A model generated the notes under the pieces. The model was not told the DNA's origin. It ran no database searches and saw only the letters and a program-made list of their open reading frames with translations. This document shows positions 5,366-15,979 of a stretch of DNA of 24,000 nt, piece by piece. The stretch is taken from positions 61,520 to 85,519 of the forward strand of contig NZ_JBHXWI010000006.1 of NCBI RefSeq assembly GCF_042671975.1, written 5' to 3'. Source of the DNA: Rhodococcus sp. NPDC127593 (GTDB lineage: Bacteria > Actinomycetota > Actinomycetes > Mycobacteriales > Mycobacteriaceae). Position 1 is the stretch's first letter. Every line of letters begins with the position of its first letter. The position numbers and the translations under genes are program-made.

Positions 5366-6625
5366 TCAGCCCCGCTGCGCCAGAAAGGCCACGTCCACCT
5401 GGTCACCGGTCCGGACCTCGGTGATCTCGGGGTCGATGAGGACCAGGCAGTTGGCCTCGGCCAACGTGGCGAGCAGGTGCGAGGACGCGCCCGGCGCCCC
5501 GCCGAGAGCTTGGACGAGGTACTCCCCCGTGGCCTCGTCGCGCATGAGCTGACCGCGGAGAAAACCCTTGCGGTGCTCGATGGACGTGATCGGTGCGACG
5601 GTGCGGGCGGTGACGACGCGTCGCATCGGCTGCCTGCGCCCCAGCGCGATGCGGATCAGCGGGCGCACCATCACCTCGAAGACCACCAGGGCGCTCACCG
5701 GATTGGACGGGAGCAGGAACGTCGGGACCTCGTCCCGGCCCAGCTGACCGAAACCCTGGACCGATCCCGGATGCATCGCGACCCGGTCGACCTCGAGGTT
5801 TCCGAGATCGGCGAGTGCGTCCCGCACATCCTCGGAGGCGCCGCCGCCGACTGCACCCGCGATGACGACGATCTCGGAACGGATCAGCTGACCTTCCACC
5901 ACCTCGCGCAGGCGACGGGCGTCGGCGTTCGCGATACCGACCCGGTTGACGTCGGCGCCGGCGTCGCGGGCGGCGGCGGCCAGCGCGTACGAGTTGACGT
6001 CGTAGACCTGACCGGGACCGGGGGTCCGGTCGACGTCGACGAGTTCGCCACCGACCGAGATGACGGACAGCCGGGGCCGGGGATGCACGAGCACCTTGTC
6101 TCGGCCCACCGCCGCCAGCAACCCCACCTGCGCGGCTCCGATGATGGTGCCTGCCCGGACTGCGACGTCTCCGGGCTGTACGTCGTCGCCGGCCCGGCGC
6201 ACGTAGTCGCCGGAGCGGACCGGCTTGTAGATCTTGACGCGGGCCCGGCCGCCGTCCGTGCGGTCGAGTGGAAGGACGGCGTCGGCGAGCGTCGGGAGCG
6301 GTGCACCCGTGTCGACCTTGACGGCCTGACGCGGCTGCAGCCGGATCGGCTGCCGCGAACCGGCCGTGACCTCACCGACCACGGGAAGCGACAGTTCGAC
6401 GGGAGCACCGTCGTCGTCGCGGATGTCGGTTCCGGCGGCCTGGACGTCGACGCTACGGACGGCATAGCCGTCGATCGCGGCCTGGTCGAAACCGGGAAGC
6501 GGACGCTCGGTGACCACCTCTTCGGCACACAGCAGCCCTTGGGCTTCGGAGATCGCCACACGGACCGGCCGCGGTGCCACCGCGGCCGCGGTCACGATCG
6601 TCTGTTGCTCCTCGACCGACCGCAA
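5366..6625 (-). CDS. glp: MoeA-family molybdopterin molybdotransferase / gephyrin-like divisome protein Glp (MoeA1-position ortholog)
   Basis: 419 aa. TTG start at 6625 lies 7 nt after GGGAGG. The N-terminus MRSVEEQQ...PLPGFDQAAIDGYAV and later blocks are typical of MoeA. It is sandwiched between galU and rimJ. Confidence 0.85.
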   Translation of the reverse strand: MRSVEEQQTIVTAAAVAPRPVRVAISEAQGLLCAEEVVTERPLPGFDQAAIDGYAVRSVDVQAAGTDIRDDDGAPVELSLPVVGEVTAGSRQPIRLQPRQAVKVDTGAPLPTLADAVLPLDRTDGGRARVKIYKPVRSGDYVRRAGDDVQPGDVAVRAGTIIGAAQVGLLAAVGRDKVLVHPRPRLSVISVGGELVDVDRTPGPGQVYDVNSYALAAAARDAGADVNRVGIANADARRLREVVEGQLIRSEIVVIAGAVGGGASEDVRDALADLGNLEVDRVAMHPGSVQGFGQLGRDEVPTFLLPSNPVSALVVFEVMVRPLIRIALGRRQPMRRVVTARTVAPITSIEHRKGFLRGQLMRDEATGEYLVQALGGAPGASSHLLATLAEANCLVLIDPEITEVRTGDQVDVAFLAQRG

Positions 6626-8353: not shown

Positions 8354-8662
8354 GTGCCCACTTACTCATATGCGTGCACGGCATGCGACAACCGTTTCGA
8401 CATCGTCCAGTCGTTCAGTGATGACTCCCTGACCGTCTGCCCCGCATGCTCGGGCAAGCTTCGCAAACTGTTCAACTCCGTCGGCATCGTCTTCAAGGGC
8501 AGCGGTTTCTACCGCACCGACAGCCGCGGCACGTCCGGCGCAGCAAGCGAGCCGGCCAAGACCGACTCCGCTCCCGCCGCGAAGTCGGAAAGTTCGTCGA
8601 CGGCCTCGTCCAGCTCTTCGAGCACCGCAACCGCCGCACCGGCCAAGGCTGCTGCCAGCTAG
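8354..8662 (+). CDS. FmdB-family zinc-ribbon putative regulatory protein
   Basis: GTG 8354 lies 7 nt after GGAGG. The N-terminus (V/M)PTYSYACTACDNRFDIVQSFSDDSLTVCPACSGKLRKLF has the CxxC...CxxC pattern, followed by a Ser/Ala-rich tail. Confidence 0.8.
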   Translation: MPTYSYACTACDNRFDIVQSFSDDSLTVCPACSGKLRKLFNSVGIVFKGSGFYRTDSRGTSGAASEPAKTDSAPAAKSESSSTASSSSSSTATAAPAKAAAS

Positions 8663-8707
8663 TTCTCGCACCTCCGCGAGTTATCCACAACTTCTCGCCC
8701 ATCCACA

Positions 8708-8740
8708 GGCGGGCCCATTCGGTGCACCCACGGGCCCGCC
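8708..8740 (+). terminator. GC-rich stem-loop after fmdB (no T-tract)
   Basis: ggcgggccc (8708-8716) pairs with gggcccgcc (8732-8740) across a 15-nt loop. Confidence 0.35.
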
Positions 8741-8759
8741 GGTCTCCTAGCGTCGAACC

Positions 8760-9473
8760 ATGTCGTTCGACCCTGTCCAGACCGGTCGCCGCCGGTCGAA
8801 CCGAGCACACCGCAGCCTGAGCCCGTCGTGGGCCGACCGGCTGTCGGACCTCGCCCATCCCGGTTGGGCCCGCACCCTCGTCGCCCGACGCGTCCTGGCC
8901 GCCGCGCTGGTCTGCCTCGCACTGGCCCTCCTCGCCCGTGGAGACCCCGACTCCGCCCGCTCCGCAGTCGTGGTGGCCGCCCGGGACCTCCAACCAGGCG
9001 TCGTTCTCACGGACGCCGACGTGGAAGTGGTGGAACTCGAAGCGGGAACCCTGCCCCACGGGGCCGTCACCGCAGTGGCGGACGTCGACGGGCGCACCCT
9101 CGCCGGACCGACCCGCGCCGGTGAAGCCCTCACCGACGTCCGGGTACTGGGCCCCCGCCTGGCCGCCGCCGCAGCCGGCATTGACGACGCCCGGATCGTC
9201 CCAGTCCGACTCGCCGACCCCGCTGTCACGGAACTTCTGCGTGAGGGCGATCGCGTCGACGTGCTCACGGTCGATCCCGCCACACCAGCGAATCCGGACC
9301 GGCGGTCCGGCGCCACCGTGCTGGCGTCCCGCGCCGTCGTGGTGTTGGTGACACCGTCCGAGAACGGGCGTGACCAGCGAGAACGCGTGGTGATGCTGGC
9401 CCTTCCGGCGTCCGAGGCCACGACGGTGGCCGCGGCATCCCTCACGAGCGCGATCACCGTGACCTTTCAGTGA
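8760..9473 (+). CDS. SAF-domain membrane protein (CpaB/RcpC-like)
   Basis: 237 aa. A basic N-terminus and one TM (VLAAALVCLALALLA) are followed by VVVAARDLQPGVVLTDADVEVVELEAGTLPHGAV, which looks like a SAF beta-clip. Confidence 0.6.
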   Translation: MSFDPVQTGRRRSNRAHRSLSPSWADRLSDLAHPGWARTLVARRVLAAALVCLALALLARGDPDSARSAVVVAARDLQPGVVLTDADVEVVELEAGTLPHGAVTAVADVDGRTLAGPTRAGEALTDVRVLGPRLAAAAAGIDDARIVPVRLADPAVTELLREGDRVDVLTVDPATPANPDRRSGATVLASRAVVVLVTPSENGRDQRERVVMLALPASEATTVAAASLTSAITVTFQ

Positions 9474-9556
9474 TCCGTCACGCGGAGCCGTACTGATCTA
9501 GTCTTTTTTGCCAGACAGTGCTGGATGACTTGCCACCCACTCGAGGAGACGTCGAC

Positions 9557-10024
9557 ATGTTCAAGGGATTCAAGGACTTCCTGCTCCGGGGGAACGTCCT
9601 CGACCTCGCCGTCGCGGTCGTAGTCGGAGCCGCGTTCACCGCCATCGTCACAGCGTTCACCAACAACGTCATCAATCCGCTGATCGCCGTTGCGGGCGGC
9701 GCCAACGATCTGGGCTGGGGTTACCAGATTATCGCCGACAACCCGGCCACCTTCATCAACATCGGCGCCGTCATCACGGCTGTGATCAACTTCGTGATCG
9801 TCGCAGCGGTCGTGTACTTCATTCTCATCGTCCCGGCCAACGCCGCGAAGAAGCGGTTCATCACCGAGCCGGCCGACAAGAAGGCCAGTGAGGCGGACCT
9901 GCTGATCCAGATCCGCGACATCCTCGAGGCCAGCCTCCAAACCGGCGGGGCGGCAGCCAGTTCCGACGGTGCGCACGCCATGCCCGCCGAGAAGGCGGCG
10001 AACCTCGACAAGACGCGCGAATAG
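9557..10024 (+). CDS. mscL: large-conductance mechanosensitive channel
   Basis: ATG 9557 follows GAGGAG. The N-terminus MFKGFKDFLLRGNVLDLAVAVVVGAAFTAIVTAFTNNVINPLIA is canonical MscL. Confidence 0.9.
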   Translation: MFKGFKDFLLRGNVLDLAVAVVVGAAFTAIVTAFTNNVINPLIAVAGGANDLGWGYQIIADNPATFINIGAVITAVINFVIVAAVVYFILIVPANAAKKRFITEPADKKASEADLLIQIRDILEASLQTGGAAASSDGAHAMPAEKAANLDKTRE

Positions 10025-10036
10025 CGTTCAGACAAC

Positions 10037-10073
10037 TCCGGGCCCGTGCAGCAGCTGCGTGCACGGGCCCGGA
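10037..10073. terminator. bidirectional terminator hairpin between mscL (+) and porin A1 (-)
   Basis: A 13-bp perfect stem, ccgggcccgtgca (10038-10050) with tgcacgggcccgg (10060-10072), encloses a 9-nt loop. CTCTTTGG follows on the + strand. Confidence 0.6.
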
Positions 10074-10092
10074 CTCTTTGGTGGAACGAATA

Positions 10093-10770
10093 TCAGCCGA
10101 TGCTGAAGGGCTGTCCCCACAGGGTGACGGTGCTGCTCACGTTGTCCGTCTCGACGGACACGTTCACGTACGACCGTGCCTGCGCGTAACCGGCGCAGCC
10201 GTTCACGCCGAGGGTCGAGTCGGCCCAGGTGACCGAACCGTCGGTACCCTCGAAGCTGTTGTATGCCGAGTGCGACTCTCCGCCGTAGGCGTCGGCCGAC
10301 TCGAGGTCGAGGATGTCGACGCTGACGGCCTCACCGGGGCCGAGGGTGATACCCGCGCTCGTGCCGCCGTCGACAGGAACCGAAACGGTACCGTCAGCAT
10401 TCACCACCGGAGTCGAGCCGGCTTCACCGCCTGCCTCCGCACCGAAGTCGACCTGGCAGGCCAGGACGTAACCCGGCTGGATGTCGGCACCGGTCGCTCC
10501 GGCGCCGTCCAGGTGGACGGAGGCCTTGCCGTTGACCCAGACGTTACGGTGCAACGGAGTCGAACCCATCGACGGCGAAACGTTCGCGCTCTCATCGGTC
10601 AGGTTCACCGTCACCACGGTGCCGTCAGCCAACGTCTGCGTGATCGAACCACCAGGCAGCGGAATGAACGTGTCGGCGCTCGCCGCACCGACGGAAAAGA
10701 AGCCCATGGTCGCGGCAGCAGCGGCACCGACCGCGGCCAGACGCACACCGTTCTTACGGTTGATGATCAT
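10093..10770 (-). CDS. MspA-family porin, paralog A1 (acidic variant)
   Basis: ATG 10770 follows GAGAGGGGAA. The signal peptide is MIINRKNGVRLAAVGAAAAATMGFFSVGAASA|DTFIPLPGG. The mature part is about 193 aa and ends TLWGQPFSIG (compare the MspA end ...TYGEPWNMN). The track's 315-aa version would overlap the upstream gene. Confidence 0.8.
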   Translation of the reverse strand: MIINRKNGVRLAAVGAAAAATMGFFSVGAASADTFIPLPGGSITQTLADGTVVTVNLTDESANVSPSMGSTPLHRNVWVNGKASVHLDGAGATGADIQPGYVLACQVDFGAEAGGEAGSTPVVNADGTVSVPVDGGTSAGITLGPGEAVSVDILDLESADAYGGESHSAYNSFEGTDGSVTWADSTLGVNGCAGYAQARSYVNVSVETDNVSSTVTLWGQPFSIG

Positions 10771-11544
10771 TGTTCCCCTCTCAGGGATAGAAACCTCGCG
10801 CACGCGAGAAAGTGGGTGGGAAGAACTGCGAAAGAGACCGAAATCAGCCGATGCTGAACGGCGCACCGTACAGAACGGTCTTCGAGTAGTCGTTGCCCAC
10901 GATCTCCACGACCGAGTACGAACGAGCCTGCGCGAATCCACCGCACTTCTGCACCTGCAGCTCCGCATCCTGGTACTGCAGCGCGTACACGCCGTCCTTC
11001 TTGATGTCCTTGCCACCCAACGGCACGTACTTGATCTCACCCGAAGCCAACGGAACCGTCAGACCCGCACTCGCCGACAACGAATCGAGACCCAGACTGA
11101 ACGACGGGTTCGCCGACAGACCGGTGATATCCACCTGGCAACCCACGATGTACCCGGTCGACACCCGCGAAACACCATGCGTCGTCGACGCATTCGTACC
11201 GTTGTAGGTACCCGCATTGTTCGTCGTCGAGTTCGCGTCCGGAACGTCGGTGACGTCCTTGATGCCCTTGACATCGGCAACGACGGTGCCCGACACCCAG
11301 GCCACACGACCGACGCCATTGGCAGCCAGCGACGGCGACGACAGAGCGCTCTCCGCAGTACGCGTCAACGTCACATTCGGACCGGCCTTCGAACCATCAG
11401 GCAGCGGGATGAAAGTATCCGCGCTCGCCGCACCAGTGGACATCAAACCGAGTGCAACAGCCGCAGCAGCACCCAGGCCTGCAATACGGGCGCCACGGCG
11501 CAGGCCGGACTTGCGGTTCTCGCTCATTCGTTCCCCTCATCAGG
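10516..11544. repeat. direct repeat copy 1 (1,029 bp, perfect)
   Basis: A block-by-block comparison with 12196-13224 found no mismatch. It covers the first 255 nt of gene A, the A-B spacer, all of gene B and 17 nt upstream of B. Confidence 0.9.
10844..11527 (-). CDS. MspA-family porin, paralog B1
   Basis: 227 aa. RBS GAGGGGAA precedes the start. The signal peptide is MSENRKSGLRRGARIAGLGAAAAVALGLMSTGAASA|DTFIPLPDG, and the protein ends VLYGAPFSIG. Confidence 0.8.
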   Translation of the reverse strand: MSENRKSGLRRGARIAGLGAAAAVALGLMSTGAASADTFIPLPDGSKAGPNVTLTRTAESALSSPSLAANGVGRVAWVSGTVVADVKGIKDVTDVPDANSTTNNAGTYNGTNASTTHGVSRVSTGYIVGCQVDITGLSANPSFSLGLDSLSASAGLTVPLASGEIKYVPLGGKDIKKDGVYALQYQDAELQVQKCGGFAQARSYSVVEIVGNDYSKTVLYGAPFSIG

Positions 11545-11663
11545 CGTGGTTGCTCCGACCTTCGGAGAAGACCTACGACCTAGCGAGGTCCAAAGTTAGA
11601 GCATTCGAGTCTGAAACGTAATATCCGGAACGGTGCATTTACGTAAGTGTTACCAGACATAAA

Positions 11664-11737
11664 GGCGCGTTATTTGCGCGTAATAGCGCATTTTTGACGC
11701 GCCAAAAATCGGGGCGCGAGTATTACCGCGCCCCGAT
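11664..11737 (-). terminator. two tandem intrinsic terminators after porin A2
   Basis: Read on the minus strand. Hairpin 1 is ATCGGGGCGCG-GTAATACT-CGCGCCCCGAT (11737-11708), followed by TTTTGG. Hairpin 2 (11703-11664) pairs GGCGCGT with ACGCGCC, contains a nested TGCGC/GCGCA stem, and is followed by TTTAT. Confidence 0.7.
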
Positions 11738-11772
11738 TCCGGGTAATTCCTACTTGTTTATGGAGAAAGCAA

Positions 11773-12450
11773 TCAGCCGATGCTGAAGGGCTGTCCCCAC
11801 AGGGTGACCGTGCTGCTGACGTTGTCGGTGCTGACGGCAACCTTGACGTAGCTGCGCGCCTGGGCGTAGCCGGCGCAACCGCTCACTCCGAGGGTCGAGT
11901 CGGCCCAGGTGACCGAACCGGTCTTGCCCGTGAACTTGTTGGCACCGGAGTGCGACTCGGCGCCGTAGGCGTCCTTCTTCTCGAGGTCGAGAATCGTGAC
12001 GTTCTTCGCCTGGCCGGGGCCGAGGGTGATTCCGGCGCCGGTGGCACCCGTGACCGGAATAGAGACGGTGCCGTCGTCGGCGACGGACGGCGTCGAGCCC
12101 GTCTTGCCGTTGGCGCTGGCACCGAAGTCGACCTGGCAGGCCAGGACGTAACCCGGGGTGATCGAGGCTCCCTTGGCTCCGGCGCCGTCCAGCGTGACGG
12201 AGGCCTTGCCGTTGACCCAGACGTTACGGTGCAACGGAGTCGAACCCATCGACGGCGAAACGTTCGCGCTCTCATCGGTCAGGTTCACCGTCACCACGGT
12301 GCCGTCAGCCAACGTCTGCGTGATCGAACCACCAGGCAGCGGAATGAACGTGTCGGCGCTCGCCGCACCGACGGAAAAGAAGCCCATGGTCGCGGCAGCA
12401 GCGGCACCGACCGCGGCCAGACGCACACCGTTCTTACGGTTGATGATCAT
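11773..12450 (-). CDS. MspA-family porin, paralog A2 (near-neutral variant)
   Basis: Same start context and the same first 84 residues as A1. The C-terminal 141 residues differ at 32 positions by hand alignment. Confidence 0.8.
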   Translation of the reverse strand: MIINRKNGVRLAAVGAAAAATMGFFSVGAASADTFIPLPGGSITQTLADGTVVTVNLTDESANVSPSMGSTPLHRNVWVNGKASVTLDGAGAKGASITPGYVLACQVDFGASANGKTGSTPSVADDGTVSIPVTGATGAGITLGPGQAKNVTILDLEKKDAYGAESHSGANKFTGKTGSVTWADSTLGVSGCAGYAQARSYVKVAVSTDNVSSTVTLWGQPFSIG

Positions 12451-13224
12451 TGTTCCCCTCTCAGGGATAGAAACCTCGCGCACGCGAGAAAGTGGGTGGG
12501 AAGAACTGCGAAAGAGACCGAAATCAGCCGATGCTGAACGGCGCACCGTACAGAACGGTCTTCGAGTAGTCGTTGCCCACGATCTCCACGACCGAGTACG
12601 AACGAGCCTGCGCGAATCCACCGCACTTCTGCACCTGCAGCTCCGCATCCTGGTACTGCAGCGCGTACACGCCGTCCTTCTTGATGTCCTTGCCACCCAA
12701 CGGCACGTACTTGATCTCACCCGAAGCCAACGGAACCGTCAGACCCGCACTCGCCGACAACGAATCGAGACCCAGACTGAACGACGGGTTCGCCGACAGA
12801 CCGGTGATATCCACCTGGCAACCCACGATGTACCCGGTCGACACCCGCGAAACACCATGCGTCGTCGACGCATTCGTACCGTTGTAGGTACCCGCATTGT
12901 TCGTCGTCGAGTTCGCGTCCGGAACGTCGGTGACGTCCTTGATGCCCTTGACATCGGCAACGACGGTGCCCGACACCCAGGCCACACGACCGACGCCATT
13001 GGCAGCCAGCGACGGCGACGACAGAGCGCTCTCCGCAGTACGCGTCAACGTCACATTCGGACCGGCCTTCGAACCATCAGGCAGCGGGATGAAAGTATCC
13101 GCGCTCGCCGCACCAGTGGACATCAAACCGAGTGCAACAGCCGCAGCAGCACCCAGGCCTGCAATACGGGCGCCACGGCGCAGGCCGGACTTGCGGTTCT
13201 CGCTCATTCGTTCCCCTCATCAGG
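12196..13224. repeat. direct repeat copy 2 (1,029 bp, perfect)
   Basis: Identical to 10516-11544. The period is 1,680 bp. Confidence 0.9.
12524..13207 (-). CDS. MspA-family porin, paralog B2 (100% identical to B1)
   Basis: The nucleotide sequence is identical to 10844-11527 at an offset of 1,680 bp. Confidence 0.8.
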   Translation of the reverse strand: MSENRKSGLRRGARIAGLGAAAAVALGLMSTGAASADTFIPLPDGSKAGPNVTLTRTAESALSSPSLAANGVGRVAWVSGTVVADVKGIKDVTDVPDANSTTNNAGTYNGTNASTTHGVSRVSTGYIVGCQVDITGLSANPSFSLGLDSLSASAGLTVPLASGEIKYVPLGGKDIKKDGVYALQYQDAELQVQKCGGFAQARSYSVVEIVGNDYSKTVLYGAPFSIG

Positions 13225-13436
13225 ATTCATGCAAGTTCCCAGCCCCGACGATCGAAGCTGAGGAGTGGTCCATTTCGGGCCCAGCGCAGTATTCGCAGCA
13301 AAGGTGTCCGCAGAGTTAACTGCGGACGACCAGTTGCCGGAATTTCGACACTAGAGACAAACCTCACAAGGAGGCTCGTCCGGGCAACGACGTGGCACCA
13401 CGCCCCGCCCTCCATCTTCGTACTGACTCGTCAGGG

Positions 13437-13465
13437 ACATTAACCCGAGCTAAGAACCTGGGCAA
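13437..13465 (-). promoter_or_regulatory. candidate sigma-A-type promoter for the B2-A2 porin operon
   Basis: On the minus strand: TTGCCC (13465-13460), a 17-nt spacer, then TAATGT (13442-13437). This would give a leader of about 220 nt. It is a pattern match only. Confidence 0.3.
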
Positions 13466-13645
13466 CGTGATCAGCTCGTGACGCAATTGTGATGTGCCTC
13501 ACAAAGTTGAAAACGAAACATTACCTACGGGTAGCCCCGCTTTGGATTCTCGTGAACGAAAGCGGCCGTACCAGTAGTTTTCCGAGCGCAATTTTTTCCG
13601 TTACTGCCGACAACACTTAGATTCATCCAGATTTCAATCAGGCGT

Positions 13646-13867
13646 CTACCCGTGATGAGGGGGAACCTGACGCCGAATCCACTCCTCGGACTCATTGCGT
13701 TTGTCCACATACTGAGATGCCTCGTCCTGTCCGCGTTCGTCCGCGGTGGTGTCGGGGAAGACGTCCCCGAAGATGCGTTCGAGCCGGGCCCTGTCGATCG
13801 GGGCCCGGCTCGGAACTGCCTGCTCGTCGGGCTCGCTGTGCGAGTCCGGCTCGTCGGAACGAGAAAT
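13646..13867 (-). CDS. small acidic protein ending ...EEWIRRQVPPHHG; no canonical start codon (tentative ATT start)
   Basis: The frame is open from 13900 to TAG 13648-13646. The translation ISRSDEPDSHSEPDEQAVPSRAPIDRARLERIFGDVFPDTTADERGQDEASQYVDKRNESEEWIRRQVPPHHG is protein-like. GGAAGG lies 8 nt upstream of ATT 13867, which is 4 nt after the moaB stop. The only ATG/GTG/TTG in frame is GTG 13708, which would give 20 aa. Confidence 0.4.
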   Translation of the reverse strand: MSRSDEPDSHSEPDEQAVPSRAPIDRARLERIFGDVFPDTTADERGQDEASQYVDKRNESEEWIRRQVPPHHG

Positions 13868-13871
13868 CGTC

Positions 13872-14432
13872 TCAGCCTTCCAGACCGGACAATTCGGAAA
13901 TCACGTGCGCCGCGAGCGGCGTCAGGGTGGCCATGCCGTCCCGGACCGCGGCGCGGGAGGAAGCGAGGTTTACCACGAGTGTGCTGCCGGACACTCCGGC
14001 GAGCCCGCGGGAGAGGCCCGCGTCGAGCGAACCGGCGGCGAGACCGGAAGACCGGAGGGCCTCCGAGATTCCAGGAATCTCGCGGTCGAGGACCTCGGCG
14101 GTGACATCGGGGGCGACGTCACGCGGCGACACGCCGGTACCGCCGACGGAGACGACGAGGTCGACGCCTCCGATGACGGCGGTGTTGAGCGCGTTGCGGA
14201 TCTCCACCTCGTCGGCCGCCACCGCCACGATGGCGTCGACGATGAAGCCGGCCTCGTTCAGCAGTTCTGTCACCAGGGGCCCGATGGAGTCCTTGCCGTC
14301 ACCGTGAGCGGTGCGGTCGTCGACGATTACCACCAGCGCGCGGCCGGCCAGCGAGGCTTCGATTTCCATGGTCCCTACCGTAGTGGCCCCGTTCAGAACA
14401 GACTCGACCTGCCCGAGAATCCCCGTGTTCAT
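13872..14432 (-). CDS. moaB: MogA/MoaB-family molybdenum cofactor biosynthesis protein
   Basis: Contains ...ALVVIVDDRTAHG...DLVVSVGGTGVSPRDVAPDV...GLSRGLAGVSGSTLVVNLASS. ATG 14432 overlaps the pepD stop (TGATG). An alternative start is ATG 14369. Confidence 0.8.
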   Translation of the reverse strand: MNTGILGQVESVLNGATTVGTMEIEASLAGRALVVIVDDRTAHGDGKDSIGPLVTELLNEAGFIVDAIVAVAADEVEIRNALNTAVIGGVDLVVSVGGTGVSPRDVAPDVTAEVLDREIPGISEALRSSGLAAGSLDAGLSRGLAGVSGSTLVVNLASSRAAVRDGMATLTPLAAHVISELSGLEG

Positions 14433-15979
14433 CAGCGGCCACCCTGTTCGGCCGTTCCGAGCGTGACGTCGACGGTCTTGGTATTGGATCCGTTCCCGTC
14501 GGTGTAGGTGATCGACACATTGTCTCCCGGTGCGTGTGAACGGATGGCGGCGATGAGCGCGTCGCCACTGGTGATGACGCGGTCGTCGACCTCGGTGATC
14601 ACCGACCCCTTCGGAATACCCGCCTTCTCCGCCGGGCTGCCCGCCGTGACCTCGACGACGGTTGCACCGTTGGCGGCGTCCTGCGACGGGACCTGGATCC
14701 CGATGACGGCCTGGGTGGCCTTGCCTGTCTTGACCAGCTCGTCCGCGATGCGCCGGGCCTGGTCGACCGGGATCGCGAAGCCGAGTCCGATGGAGCCGCT
14801 CTGCTCGCCGGCACCGGAACCGCCGATGCTCGCGATGGCGGTGTTGATGCCGATCAGCTGGCCGTCCATGTTGACGAGGGCGCCGCCGGAGTTGCCCGGG
14901 TTGATCGCCGCATCGGTCTGGAGGGCGTCGATGACGGTGTTCTGGTTGCCGGACTCGCCGCTGGTGGACACCGGGCGATTGAGCGCCGAGATGATGCCCT
15001 CGGTGACGGTCCCGGCCAGGCCGAGGGGCGACCCGATCGCCACGACCTGCTGTCCGACCTGCACGTTGCCGGACGTTCCCAGCTCGATCGGAGTGAGGTC
15101 GGTCTTGCCGTCCACCTTGATGACCGCGAGATCGGACACCGGGTCGGCGCCGACCAGCTTGGCGTCCGCCGTGCTGCCGTCCGAGAAGGCGACCGTCAGC
15201 TTGCCGCCCTTTGCTGCCGCGCCTGCCACGTGATTGTTGGTGAGGATCATGCCGTCGGACGAGATGACGATGCCGGATCCTTCTCCACCGGAACCGCCTG
15301 CCGTCGCCACCTCGATCTGGACGACGCTCGGGACCACCTTGTTCGCGACCGCCTGCACCGAACCTGCCGGTGCATTCGCGGCCGGGGTCGCGGTGTTGTT
15401 CTTGGGGGCGTCGAGGGAGTTGGTCACCGCGGCGCCGCTGCCGTTCCGGTCGGTTGCCAGGGAGCCCACGACGCCACCGATGCCACCGCTCACGAGAGCG
15501 AGCGCCACAGCGCCCACCACGATGGCGGTTCGGGCGGGACGCTTGGTCGCGGTCGCCGTCGATCCCTCCCCGGCCTGTCCGGGGCCCTGAAGGCCGGGGA
15601 ACGGGCCCTGAGGCGCCCCGTGCTGCCCGACCCCGTGCTGGGCACCCGGGTGTCCCGGAGCGCCGTGCTGGGCACCCGGGTGTCCCGGAGCGCCGTGCTG
15701 GGCACCCGGGTGTCCCGGAGCGCCGTGCTGAGGCTGCCCGAACTGCTGGGCGGGCTGCTGCGGCGCACCGTACGGATTGCCCTGGGGGTACCCGGGCGCG
15801 CCGTAGGCCTGCTGACCCATCGGACCGCCCGCGGGGTTCTGCGGAGTGGCCGGAAACTGCTCGGTCGGGTGGTAACCCGGCGTCGACTGCGGGTGGGCAG
15901 GCTGTTCGGGCCGCGCGCCCTGGTCGCCACCGGCATTGTCGCGGCTGTTGCCGTCGTGACTGTCTCGATCTTCGGTCAT
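14432..15979 (-). CDS. pepD: HtrA/PepD-type S1C serine protease with C-terminal PDZ domain
   Basis: 515 aa. A Pro/Gln/Gly-rich N-terminus and one TM are followed by ...LTNNHV..., DLAVIKV and INPGNSGGALVN (catalytic Ser), then a PDZ domain. It follows mprAB, as pepD does in mycobacteria. Confidence 0.85.
   Translation of the reverse strand: MTEDRDSHDGNSRDNAGGDQGARPEQPAHPQSTPGYHPTEQFPATPQNPAGGPMGQQAYGAPGYPQGNPYGAPQQPAQQFGQPQHGAPGHPGAQHGAPGHPGAQHGAPGHPGAQHGVGQHGAPQGPFPGLQGPGQAGEGSTATATKRPARTAIVVGAVALALVSGGIGGVVGSLATDRNGSGAAVTNSLDAPKNNTATPAANAPAGSVQAVANKVVPSVVQIEVATAGGSGGEGSGIVISSDGMILTNNHVAGAAAKGGKLTVAFSDGSTADAKLVGADPVSDLAVIKVDGKTDLTPIELGTSGNVQVGQQVVAIGSPLGLAGTVTEGIISALNRPVSTSGESGNQNTVIDALQTDAAINPGNSGGALVNMDGQLIGINTAIASIGGSGAGEQSGSIGLGFAIPVDQARRIADELVKTGKATQAVIGIQVPSQDAANGATVVEVTAGSPAEKAGIPKGSVITEVDDRVITSGDALIAAIRSHAPGDNVSITYTDGNGSNTKTVDVTLGTAEQGGR
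15631..15730 (-). repeat. 30-bp in-frame tandem repeat, about 3.3 copies (encodes GAPGHPGAQH repeats)
   Basis: 15661-15690 equals 15691-15720. 15631-15660 differs at one base, and a partial copy covers 15721-15730. All lie inside the disordered N-terminus of pepD. Confidence 0.85.

Follow-up and report, generated by a model that had tools for sequence, protein, structure and literature searches.

The porin locus described here, located in a 24,000-nucleotide stretch of Rhodococcus sp. NPDC127593 DNA (the window), consists of two tandem units of MspA-family genes. Their structure is very probably the outcome of an old tandem duplication followed by repeated recombination between the copies, which homogenized about 1 kb of each unit and spared the 3′ part of the A gene. 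The process is of a known kind, of which this porin locus is a clean new example; no earlier description of the locus was found. It represents an unusually clean natural case of segmental concerted evolution, in which both edges of the homogenized segment have remained fixed over the history of the group and one of them lies within a gene.

Organization of the Porin Locus

The four MspA-family porin genes of the window are all encoded on the minus strand in the order B2–A2–B1–A1, and the two-unit locus is flanked by moaB and mscL (Table 1). A sequence-only reading of this DNA had proposed two tandem two-gene MspA units, which is borne out by the open reading frames and their Pfam PF09203 matches, scoring 157 bits for A1 and 83 bits for B1 and B2 at a cut-off of 22.9 bits. 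The A and B types share 33% identity, and 73 nt separate the paired genes. Signal peptide features are readable in both A and B, namely a basic N-terminus, an Ala-rich hydrophobic stretch and the sequence ASA/DTF, with the B signal peptide ending between ASA and DTF.

The pair of a B gene followed by an A gene is an invariant unit across Rhodococcus and Nocardia (about 70 loci), and such pairs were present in essentially all of 79 related loci. Exact-protein look-ups of B and A2 returned matches in the source genome and one sister strain only. As the sequence-only reading had stated, neither a transposase nor long inverted repeats flank the porin units in the window, and the involvement of a mobile element was ruled out on these grounds.

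Table 1. Positions of the porin genes, the homogenized block and associated features in the window.
Feature	Position	Strand	Description
A1, type-A MspA-family porin subunit, 225 aa	10093..10770	-	ORF; Pfam PF09203 E 4.9e-46
A1 non-homogenized 3′ part, codons 86-225	10092..10515	-	Groups with A1 of other species
Homogenized block, downstream copy	10516..11544	-	Leader/Shine-Dalgarno, whole B1, spacer, A1 codons 1-85
B-A spacer small GC hairpin, then UUUCU	10794..10809, also 12474-12489	-	Possible intra-operon attenuator or processing site (putative function)
B1, protein and DNA identical to B2	10844..11527	-	ORF; Pfam PF09203 E 2.5e-23
Sole block SNP versus second strain, 99.3% identical	11123 and partner 12803 (= +1680)	-	C->G in both copies
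Inter-unit spacer U1	11545..11771	-	A2 terminator hairpin, then presumed B1 promoter and leader
A2, type-A MspA-family porin subunit, 225 aa	11773..12450	-	ORF; Pfam PF09203 E 1.2e-44
A2 non-homogenized 3′ part, codons 86-225	11772..12195	-	Groups with A2 of other species
Homogenized block, upstream copy	12196..13224	-	17-nt leader with Shine-Dalgarno GAGGGG, whole B2, 73-nt B-A spacer, A2 codons 1-85
B2, type-B MspA-family porin subunit, 227 aa	12524..13207	-	ORF; Pfam PF09203 E 2.5e-23
U2, upstream region of B2-A2	13225..13510	-	Conserved leader; 92% conserved between species

The Identical Block and Its Edges

Positions 10516-11544 and 12196-13224 match exactly over 1,029 bp at a period of 1,680 bp, recovering the identity noted in the sequence-only reading; this is the longest exact run at the 1,680-bp offset, the next-longest being 38, 37 and 33 bp. 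The block begins 17 nt ahead of the B ATG and comprises the entire B gene, the 73-nt spacer and nucleotides 1–255 of A, in agreement with the content assigned to it earlier. The homologous alignment extends over 1,453 bp (10092-11544 versus 11772-13224), and all of its 101 differences are confined to 10129-10515; were these placed at random, the chance of a clean run of 1,029 bp would be ≤1e-52. Within the window, 312 codons and the 73-nt spacer carry zero differences, next to an A 3′ part with a dS of 0.57 and a dN of 0.21. This left flank, described earlier as diverged and gap-free, indeed aligns without gaps at 76% identity.

Beyond 11544/13224 on the right, the two copies are only 20–40% identical, which is the random level, and local and global alignments of the upstream regions beyond −17 scored no better than shuffles, so the abrupt right edge previously placed 17 nt upstream of B stands. 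The −17 edge may mark where the duplication was first joined, or else the end of a conversion tract beside non-coding DNA that has diverged beyond recognition. Both Shine-Dalgarno sites are preceded by a similar small hairpin, a hint in favor of the end of a conversion tract.

Concerted Evolution across Genomes

The window genome was compared with 11 further genomes from the R. opacus/jostii/koreensis group that also have two units. The resulting set of 12 contains five finished chromosomes (CP118321.2, CP063781.1, CP046572.1, CP070609.1 and CP076048.1), two genomes in single contigs (7.7 and 9.06 Mb), one contig with a ‘tig’-style name, and four drafts. A block reaching from −17 to about +980–1021 is present in 12/12 of these genomes; its two copies show no differences in nine and 3–11 differences in three. 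The distance between block copies within a genome has a median of 0 and a maximum of 1.1%, versus a median of 7.2% and a maximum of 9.6% between genomes. At 182 of the 198 variable block columns, the two units agree with each other in every genome.

Pairwise comparisons gave the same picture. For five of the six genome pairs examined, all differences were paired between the copies (165/165), and the sixth, koreensis versus CP118321, had 18 paired and 3 unpaired differences. The block differences between ACS1 and USK10 comprised 10 paired and 0 unpaired sites. The only SNP that separates the block of the window strain from that of its close relative (Table 1) falls on a third codon position of B, is synonymous, and occurs in both copies (positions 6405 and 4725 of the second strain).

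In a neighbor-joining tree of the block, the copies pair by genome in 12/12 cases, and the tree of the A 3′ parts splits by position into an A1 clade and an A2 clade. The inter-unit spacer U1 and the upstream region U2 are each orthologously conserved across species. Because the A 3′ parts group by position and U1 and U2 are orthologous, the duplication predates the species splits. Between species, dS ranges over 0.08–0.35 in the block and 0.06–0.49 in the orthologous A 3′ part, and this similarity indicates that the block is not simply slow-evolving.

In this comparison of orthologous loci, a check suggested in the sequence-only reading, block copies pair by genome and A 3′ parts split by position; gene conversion, the cause put forward in that reading, is the best-supported one. 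The claim that the conversion was recent held in part: conversion itself is upheld, and a single recent event is not, since homogenization continues across the species group. This pattern shows homogenization to be recurrent, with the same boundaries group-wide, rather than the trace of one recent event.

Departures from the two-unit state were also encountered. R. jostii RHA1 has a single unit composed of U2, the block and the A1 3′ part, which is the product predicted from exchange between the blocks and could also reflect assembly collapse in the 2006 genome. A Nocardiaceae MAG carries three units at the same locus, and in Rhodococcus sp. NPDC058521 the whole unit is duplicated with 100% identity over 1,393 bp. 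Ectopic conversion with dispersed B–A pairs was looked for as segments of ≥250 bp at ≥97% identity, and none were found between two WS4 loci or among the NPDC056960 loci.

Proposed Mechanism

An old tandem duplication between moaB and mscL gave rise to two adjacent B–A units, each a putative operon. We propose that homologous recombination, presumably in the form of mainly non-reciprocal gene conversion, has since repeatedly overwritten one copy from the other over a stretch of about 1 kb that opens 17 nt ahead of the B start and closes near codon 85 of A. As a result of such overwriting, new mutations in the block are either lost or copied into both units, and the block evolves as one sequence inside a genome while still diverging between genomes at a normal rate. 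Conversion stays out of the last 140 codons of A and out of both upstream regions, and the A 3′ parts and upstream regions have been distinct since before the species of the group split. The single unit of RHA1 makes it probable that the block undergoes reciprocal or unequal exchange as well.

The boundary inside A could be held in two ways. Selection may keep two functionally different A subunits, an acidic A1 and a near-neutral A2, and the divergence of about 24% may make recombination inefficient in the A 3′ part; with the present data these two causes cannot be separated. To judge from the gene sequences, the outcome would be two porins whose B subunit and N-terminal A module are the same but which differ in pore electrostatics and have different promoters.

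The Diverged Part of the A Genes

The diverged part of A encodes the end of the N-terminal rim strands, the predicted stem hairpin and the C-terminal rim; a rough alignment map combined with a fold model places it on the stem/constriction and C-terminal rim of MspA. The AlphaFold2 model of A1 has a mean pLDDT of 67, with low confidence at residues 108–145, where the stem hairpin is expected. Its top Foldseek matches in the PDB were 1UUN (MspA, E 3e-8) and 2V9U, the MspA rim domain (TM 0.85 on target, rmsd 3.8). When PDB chains were searched by sequence with A1, B and an A profile built from 13 sequences, MspA was not recovered and the only matches were spurious ones to ankyrins; the link to MspA rests on Pfam and the fold search of the A1 model. 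An hhalign comparison of the A profile with the mature MspA sequence was collinear but of low probability (8.7%) and serves as a rough map only.

The net charge of the last 140 residues is −17 in A1 and −1 in A2, a difference kept in five species; in R. spelaei the values are −12 and 0. Charge is changed at 17 of the 32 A1/A2 substitutions, with nine acidic residues lost and eight lysines gained. A2 varies by up to about 25% across species while the charge dichotomy persists. The overall dN/dS between A1 and A2 is 0.37, with no blanket signal of positive selection. The charge split, as read from the protein sequences, suggests two pores with one B subunit in common, and a contribution of selection to stopping conversion at the boundary.

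The boundary could instead be purely mechanical, the diverged 3′ part blocking heteroduplex extension with no selection required, which we regard as a serious possibility, although not the favored one. The overall dN/dS is consistent with it, and less than 60 nt past the edge the copies are already down to background identity. The longest identical runs in the diverged part, of 38, 37 and 33 bp, are close to the minimal lengths that efficient homologous recombination usually requires in bacteria. A mechanical boundary leaves unexplained, however, how the initial 3′ divergence arose beside an actively converting block, and why the charge dichotomy holds across species despite the change in A2. 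Moreover, the edge falls within about 40 bp in 12/12 genomes, at the first A1/A2-specific codon.

More tentatively, we hypothesize that the locus may constitute a modular porin system, in which conversion keeps B and the N-terminal rim of A the same and selection preserves two pore-lining A variants, with separate promoters, one of them bearing a CRP-type site. If so, either A variant would assemble with the same B partner, the conversion boundary would coincide with a functional domain border in MspA-type hetero-oligomers, and the cell could switch the charge selectivity of its outer-membrane pores with the assembly interface unchanged. The predicted interchangeable part of an MspA-type subunit would comprise the signal peptide and the first ~54 mature residues, together with the partner subunit, and the part predicted to set pore properties would be the stem hairpin and the C-terminal rim. 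This prediction may help the engineering of MspA-family nanopores and the understanding of outer-membrane permeability in biodegradation Rhodococcus.

Other Origins of the Identity

Cycles of unequal crossing-over between the blocks, from two units to one or three and back to two, are unlikely to be the main homogenizer in place of short conversion tracts. The copy-number variants noted above, with one unit in RHA1 and three in the MAG, show that unit number does change, and perfect direct repeats of 1 kb lend themselves well to this kind of exchange. Against this, the locus is intact in 12 distinct opacus-group genomes, and 11 of these have retained two units, no more and no fewer, along with the two A types and the two upstream regions. 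The differing sites in CP118321 and JACJDF01 are internal patches with identity on both sides, which short tracts or patch imports explain better than single crossovers. The two processes are not exclusive and have enzymes in common.

The assembly of the window genome is a draft in several contigs, with the locus on one of 118 kb. Where spanning reads are missing, a collapsed repeat can be threaded as a simple loop during assembly; for this reason, the window strain may have some real SNPs between its copies, or more than two units. That the mosaic as such is an artefact, with copies that truly differ somewhat or a single copy that was collapsed or duplicated by the assembler, is nonetheless highly improbable. 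The R. jostii NBRC 16295 assembly does break exactly at the block edges, but the same mosaic is present in the five finished chromosomes, the 7.7- and 9.06-Mb contigs and the ‘tig’-named contig, three assemblies do resolve a few differences between the copies, and the unique A2 3′ part and spacer, orthologous across species, prove two units. Short-read assemblies break at the perfect 1-kb repeat or collapse it (R. jostii NBRC 16295, and perhaps RHA1), which makes porin gene counts unreliable in draft Nocardiaceae genomes.

A single recent duplication, or separate recent ones lineage by lineage, with the A 3′ part diverging rapidly afterwards, has next to no likelihood. NPDC058521 shows that the locus does undergo new duplications, or conversions over the full length of a unit, yet this reading is refuted by the A1 versus A2 dS of 0.52–1.06 (five genomes), as opposed to 0 in the adjoining block, and by the A1 and A2 3′ parts and the U1 spacer, which are orthologous by position in 12 genomes and would not be recreated by independent events. 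Purifying selection alone, which the sequence-only reading had offered in the form of selection for identical B subunits, is just as implausible: B and the A N-terminus are well conserved between species (dN 0.01–0.06), but protein-level selection can neither remove synonymous differences nor keep the 73-nt spacer identical, and the same sites differ freely between genomes, with the block dS given above and 182 paired variable columns. More plausibly, selection acts oppositely, protecting the A1/A2 difference and fixing the edge of the tract.

Comparison with Known Systems

RecA-dependent gene conversion and concerted evolution are known from tufA/tufB of Salmonella, from rRNA operons, and from the esx and PE/PPE paralogues of Mycobacterium tuberculosis. 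The Rhodococcus locus resembles these classic cases in that the paralogues are identical or almost identical within a genome and diverge between genomes, synonymous sites are homogenized, and the tracts are discrete. It differs in that the tract takes in one gene completely, the intergenic spacer beside it and no more than the first third of the adjoining gene, that the boundary is conserved across a species group, and that the partners are tandem, putative operons only 1.68 kb apart.

A closer parallel is the tandem paralogue cluster lpl of Staphylococcus aureus (Tsuru and Kobayashi 2008, PMC2568036). There, too, the unit of recombination and evolution does not match ORF borders, a conserved segment is the recombination site, and a variable 3′ part, the intergenic region and the next 5′ part move together. 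In contrast, each lpl ORF has a short central conserved segment and shuffling takes place among many copies, whereas the Rhodococcus locus has two copies, a perfectly homogenized segment of ~1 kb, and a stably retained A2 3′ part and spacer.

Among two-gene porin systems, NfpA/NfpB of Nocardia farcinica are reported to form hetero-oligomeric channels (Klackta et al. 2011, cited in PMC9233653), and PorA/PorB of Rhodococcus ruber are reported as a likely operon (PMC9233653). As in these systems, each unit of the window consists of two diverged PF09203 genes in head-to-tail order, separated by a short spacer and encoding signal peptides, and from this likeness we infer that A and B may form hetero-oligomers. 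Obligate hetero-oligomers are not guaranteed, because each R. ruber subunit alone made channels in vitro (PMC9233653). The duplication of the pair, the identical B subunit in common and the charge-divergent A subunits are features of the Rhodococcus locus that are absent from the papers on NfpA/NfpB and PorA/PorB.

The tandem Msp-type porins MAB_1080/MAB_1081 of Mycobacterium abscessus fuse by recombination in patient isolates (PMC10243398). This exchange between tandem MspA-family genes yields one chimeric copy, analogous to the one-unit state of RHA1. It differs from the Rhodococcus case in being a recent within-host loss-of-function deletion, not long-term homogenization with a stable boundary.

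Spacers and Putative Regulatory Elements

A terminator hairpin follows each A gene. The one after A2 (about 11705-11740) consists of a 15-bp stem and a U-run; it was missed by a consensus terminator scan and confirmed by folding (−32 kcal/mol, z −3.0). The A1 hairpin, at about 10040-10070, was read from the sequence, and the B–A spacer contains a small hairpin only. Conservation of U1 is 84% among six genomes, where the hairpin stem has undergone compensatory changes, and U1 is not alignable to U2. When 9900-14500 was scanned against Rfam, the only matches at E ≤ 1 were two chance ones to miRNAs.

A consensus promoter scan of 9900-13950 returned no sigma-70-type site. A candidate promoter in U2 may consist of a −35 element TTGCCC at 13465-13460 and a −10 element TAATGT at 13442-13437. 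U2 also contains the palindrome TGTGA-N6-TCACA at 13488-13503, which occurs once in the window versus 0.03 expected and whose position is conserved into Nocardia.

Tandem porin units share a sharply bounded block

Self-comparison of the region, with which the repeat families agree, identified an exact match of 1,029 bp as the longest at an offset of 1,680 bp (10516-11544 = 12196-13224), the runner-up exact runs being 38, 37 and 33 bp. The homologous stretch in full spans 1,453 bp (10092-11544 vs 11772-13224), with 101 differences and zero gaps. All 101 differences lie inside 10129-10515; for randomly placed differences, such a clean 1,029-bp run has P <= 1e-52. Immediately past 11544/13224 identity is at random level, and alignment of the two upstream regions beyond the block was no better than that of shuffled sequence. 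From its upstream end, the block takes in a 17-nt stretch of leader that includes the Shine-Dalgarno sequence, then B in full, the B-A spacer (73 nt) and the first 85 codons of A. The sequence-only reading, which had reported this exact match, its gap-free diverged flank and unalignable upstream DNA, was accurate in every detail. The window sequence is identical to contig JBHXVS010000022.1 (GCA_042671735.1).

The four porin genes follow the order B2, A2, B1, A1 on the minus strand; the Pfam MspA match is very strong for the A type and clear for the B type, and A and B are just 33% identical. The AlphaFold2 model of A1 (mean pLDDT 67) has its best PDB matches in MspA (1UUN) and the MspA rim domain (2V9U), with low confidence at residues 108-145, the expected site of the membrane stem hairpin. 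Since the strong terminator hairpin after A2 is joined by a second hairpin, read from sequence, 3' of A1, the two units look like separate operons. Paired MspA-family porin genes are already known: in R. ruber they form a likely operon, and in N. farcinica their products are reported to form hetero-oligomers (PMC9233653).

Features of the moaB-mscL porin locus and its flanks (window positions)
Feature	Position	Strand	Evidence or role
mscL	9518-10024	+	flank
A1	10093-10770	minus	MspA PF09203 (Pfam), A type E 5e-46 and 1e-44
B1	10844-11527	minus	MspA PF09203 (Pfam), E 2.5e-23
A2 terminator hairpin, strong	~11705-11740	minus	-32 kcal/mol (folding)
A2	11773-12450	minus	MspA PF09203 (Pfam), A type E 5e-46 and 1e-44
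B2	12524-13207	minus	MspA PF09203 (Pfam), E 2.5e-23
moaB-type gene	13872-14432	minus	flank
HtrA/PepD-type protease	14432-15979	minus	flank

Concerted evolution across two-unit genomes

The layout moaB-(B>A)n-mscL holds across Rhodococcus and Nocardia, n being 1, 2 or 3, and its invariant unit is the B>A pair. Twelve two-unit genomes of the R. opacus/jostii/koreensis group were compared: the window, a 99.3%-identical sister strain, R. opacus DSM 44188, R. koreensis DSM 44498, WS4, T7, CP118321.2, sp. 21391, JACJDF01, WAY2, CP070609.1 and USK10. The set includes five finished chromosomes, and two further loci lie on contigs of 7.7 and 9.06 Mb. In 12/12 genomes the upstream edge of the block lies 17 nt before the B start codon (-17, with a mismatch at -16 in one), and the block ends 980-1021 nt further on, at about codon 85 of A.

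Within genomes, the two block copies show no difference in 9/12 cases and 3, 3 and 11 differences in the remaining three, mostly as short internal patches. Between genomes, the block differs by a median of 7.2% (maximum 9.6%), and its between-species dS of 0.08-0.35 is as high as that of the orthologous A 3' parts, i.e., the non-homogenised codons 86-225. At 182 of the 198 variable alignment columns, no genome has a difference between its two copies. Among six genome pairs examined, five have paired differences only (1, 10, 44, 46 and 46), and the sixth, koreensis vs CP118321, has 18 paired and 3 unpaired; the sole block difference between the window and sister strains is a synonymous C->G that both copies carry, at window 11123 and 12803. 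In the neighbour-joining tree of the block the copies pair by genome (12/12); in the tree for the A 3' part, A1 and A2 sequences form two cleanly separated clades. The inter-unit spacer U1, which carries a terminator stem with compensatory changes, is 84% conserved across species; the figure for U2, the region upstream of B2, is 92%.

Together, within-genome pairing of the block, positional clades of the A 3' parts, conservation of U1 and U2 and the paired differences show an old duplication with continuing homogenisation of a fixed segment; the locus is a textbook case of concerted evolution. The earlier proposal of recent gene conversion is supported, and extended, by the 12-genome comparison. 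We consider it very probable that recombination-driven concerted evolution explains the block. The best explanation of the pattern is that the tandem blocks would recombine by homologous recombination, chiefly as non-reciprocal gene conversion.

Two results exclude a single recent duplication: the A1 vs A2 dS is 0.52-1.06 beside a block dS of 0, and the A 3' parts and U1 are orthologous by position. Protein-level selection cannot account for the lack of differences at synonymous sites and in the spacer. As a cause of the mosaic, an assembly artefact was also rejected, since the same mosaic occurs in finished chromosomes and some assemblies resolve a few differences between the copies. For the window's own genome, a draft, exact identity and copy number are as given by the assembly and may differ somewhat in the strain itself.

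In the short-read assembly of R. jostii NBRC 16295 (L009, L010), one contig stops exactly at the block end, and a 1,397-bp contig holds the A2 3' part, the spacer and B1. Near-identical porin repeats also lie at or next to short-read contig ends in R. tukisamuensis (L017/L043, 99.1% over 660 bp) and Rhodococcus sp. NPDC059234 (L031/L044, 97.7% over 607 bp). Because contigs end at such repeats, draft Nocardiaceae genomes are likely to give porin copy numbers that are too low or otherwise wrong.

Copy-number variants and exchange between strains

R. jostii RHA1 (CP000431.1) has a single unit between moaB and mscL, in which U2 and one block are followed by the A1 3' part; two units are present in CP118321.2, a close relative with 99.7% identity in the flank. 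As the RHA1 unit is exactly the predicted crossover product, reciprocal or unequal exchange between blocks seems to occur besides conversion; the single unit is either a real crossover deletion or a repeat collapsed in the 2006 assembly. At the same moaB-mscL locus, Rhodococcus sp. NPDC058521 carries the whole B-A unit twice, with 100% identity over 1,393 bp (L064:6991-8383 and 8625-10017), through either a fresh duplication or full-length conversion. The R. spelaei group, with B paralogues 83-86% identical and grouping by position, has escaped homogenisation. Both are other states of the same process. The block tree places Rhodococcus sp. 21391 with ACS1/USK10, but in the A 3' tree its A1 lies with R. 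opacus DSM 44188, a discordance that indicates between-strain exchange within the locus in addition to within-genome conversion.

Gene conversion is a classic cause of concerted evolution. A recombination unit spanning gene borders has been described in the S. aureus lpl cluster (PMC2568036), and a tandem Msp-type porin fusion arose through recombination in Mycobacterium abscessus patient isolates (PMC10243398). Full-text searches of incomplete coverage returned no account of concerted evolution at MspA-type porin loci, in Rhodococcus or elsewhere. The process is known; the locus stands out by its unusually sharp, long-lived intragenic boundary.

The boundary inside A

A1 and A2 differ at 32/225 residues, all at residue 86 or later; from A1 to A2, nine acidic residues are replaced and eight lysines gained. 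The net charge of the last 140 residues is -17 in A1 and -1 in A2, with the same split in R. opacus and R. koreensis, -17/-16 vs -5/-4 in WS4 and T7, and -12 vs 0 in the distant R. spelaei. A2 varies between species by up to ~25% with the charge split kept. According to the model and a rough MspA alignment, the divergent part comprises the last portion of the N-terminal rim strands, the constriction-bearing stem hairpin (A1 NADG and A2 ADDG opposite MspA D90-D91) and the C-terminal rim.

In MspA-type channels, cation selectivity is set by acidic constriction residues (PMC9233653). Given this and the charge split, we infer that the two operons would make electrostatically different pores sharing one B subunit and one N-terminal A module, which yields a testable structure-function prediction. 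Selection would then remove conversion events that erase the A1/A2 difference; we give about even chances to selection on charge-divergent A subunits as what sets the boundary. As a partial alternative, a purely mechanical barrier must be taken seriously, since identical runs in the diverged part of A reach at most 38 bp. The overall dN/dS of A1 vs A2 (0.37) does not choose between selection and such a barrier.

Upstream edge, leader and neighbouring genes

The -17 edge may mark the junction left by the original duplication or, alternatively, the limit of conversion next to non-coding DNA diverged beyond recognition. Similar small hairpins lie just upstream of both B Shine-Dalgarno sites, at 11560-11580 (minus) in U1 (CUCCGAAGGUCGGAG) and at 13255-13280 in U2 (CUUCGAUCGUCGGGG); in regions without significant alignment, this likeness hints that the ancient duplication extended beyond -17.

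Conservation of U2 (13225-13510, minus) exceeds that of synonymous sites in the adjoining genes. The region contains an exact TGTGA-N6-TCACA (CRP-type) palindrome at 13488-13503 (1 found vs 0.03 expected), whose position is conserved into Nocardia, a possible -35/-10 pair, a leader of ~210 nt and, just upstream of the Shine-Dalgarno site, a leader stem-loop with compensatory changes. Rfam returned zero family matches for U2, which may be a regulated, structured porin leader.

Directly 3' of the moaB stop, a conserved coding-like stretch at ~13650-13870 (minus; ...ERIFGDVFPDTTADERGQDE...EEWIRRQVPPHHG*), absent from the list of ORFs of at least 60 aa, may encode a small unannotated protein. The HtrA/PepD-like protease carries a threefold 'HGAPGHPGAQ' repeat near 15600-15700, in its N-terminal low-complexity region; its length is 515 aa vs 495 aa in the sister strain, so the repeat copy number appears variable. 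The SAF/RcpC-like gene at 8760-9473 (+) is split in the sister strain by a 7-bp deletion at window 9162-9168, and its tblastn match is also split in R. opacus DSM 44188 and WS4; this gene may be undergoing decay in some members of the group.
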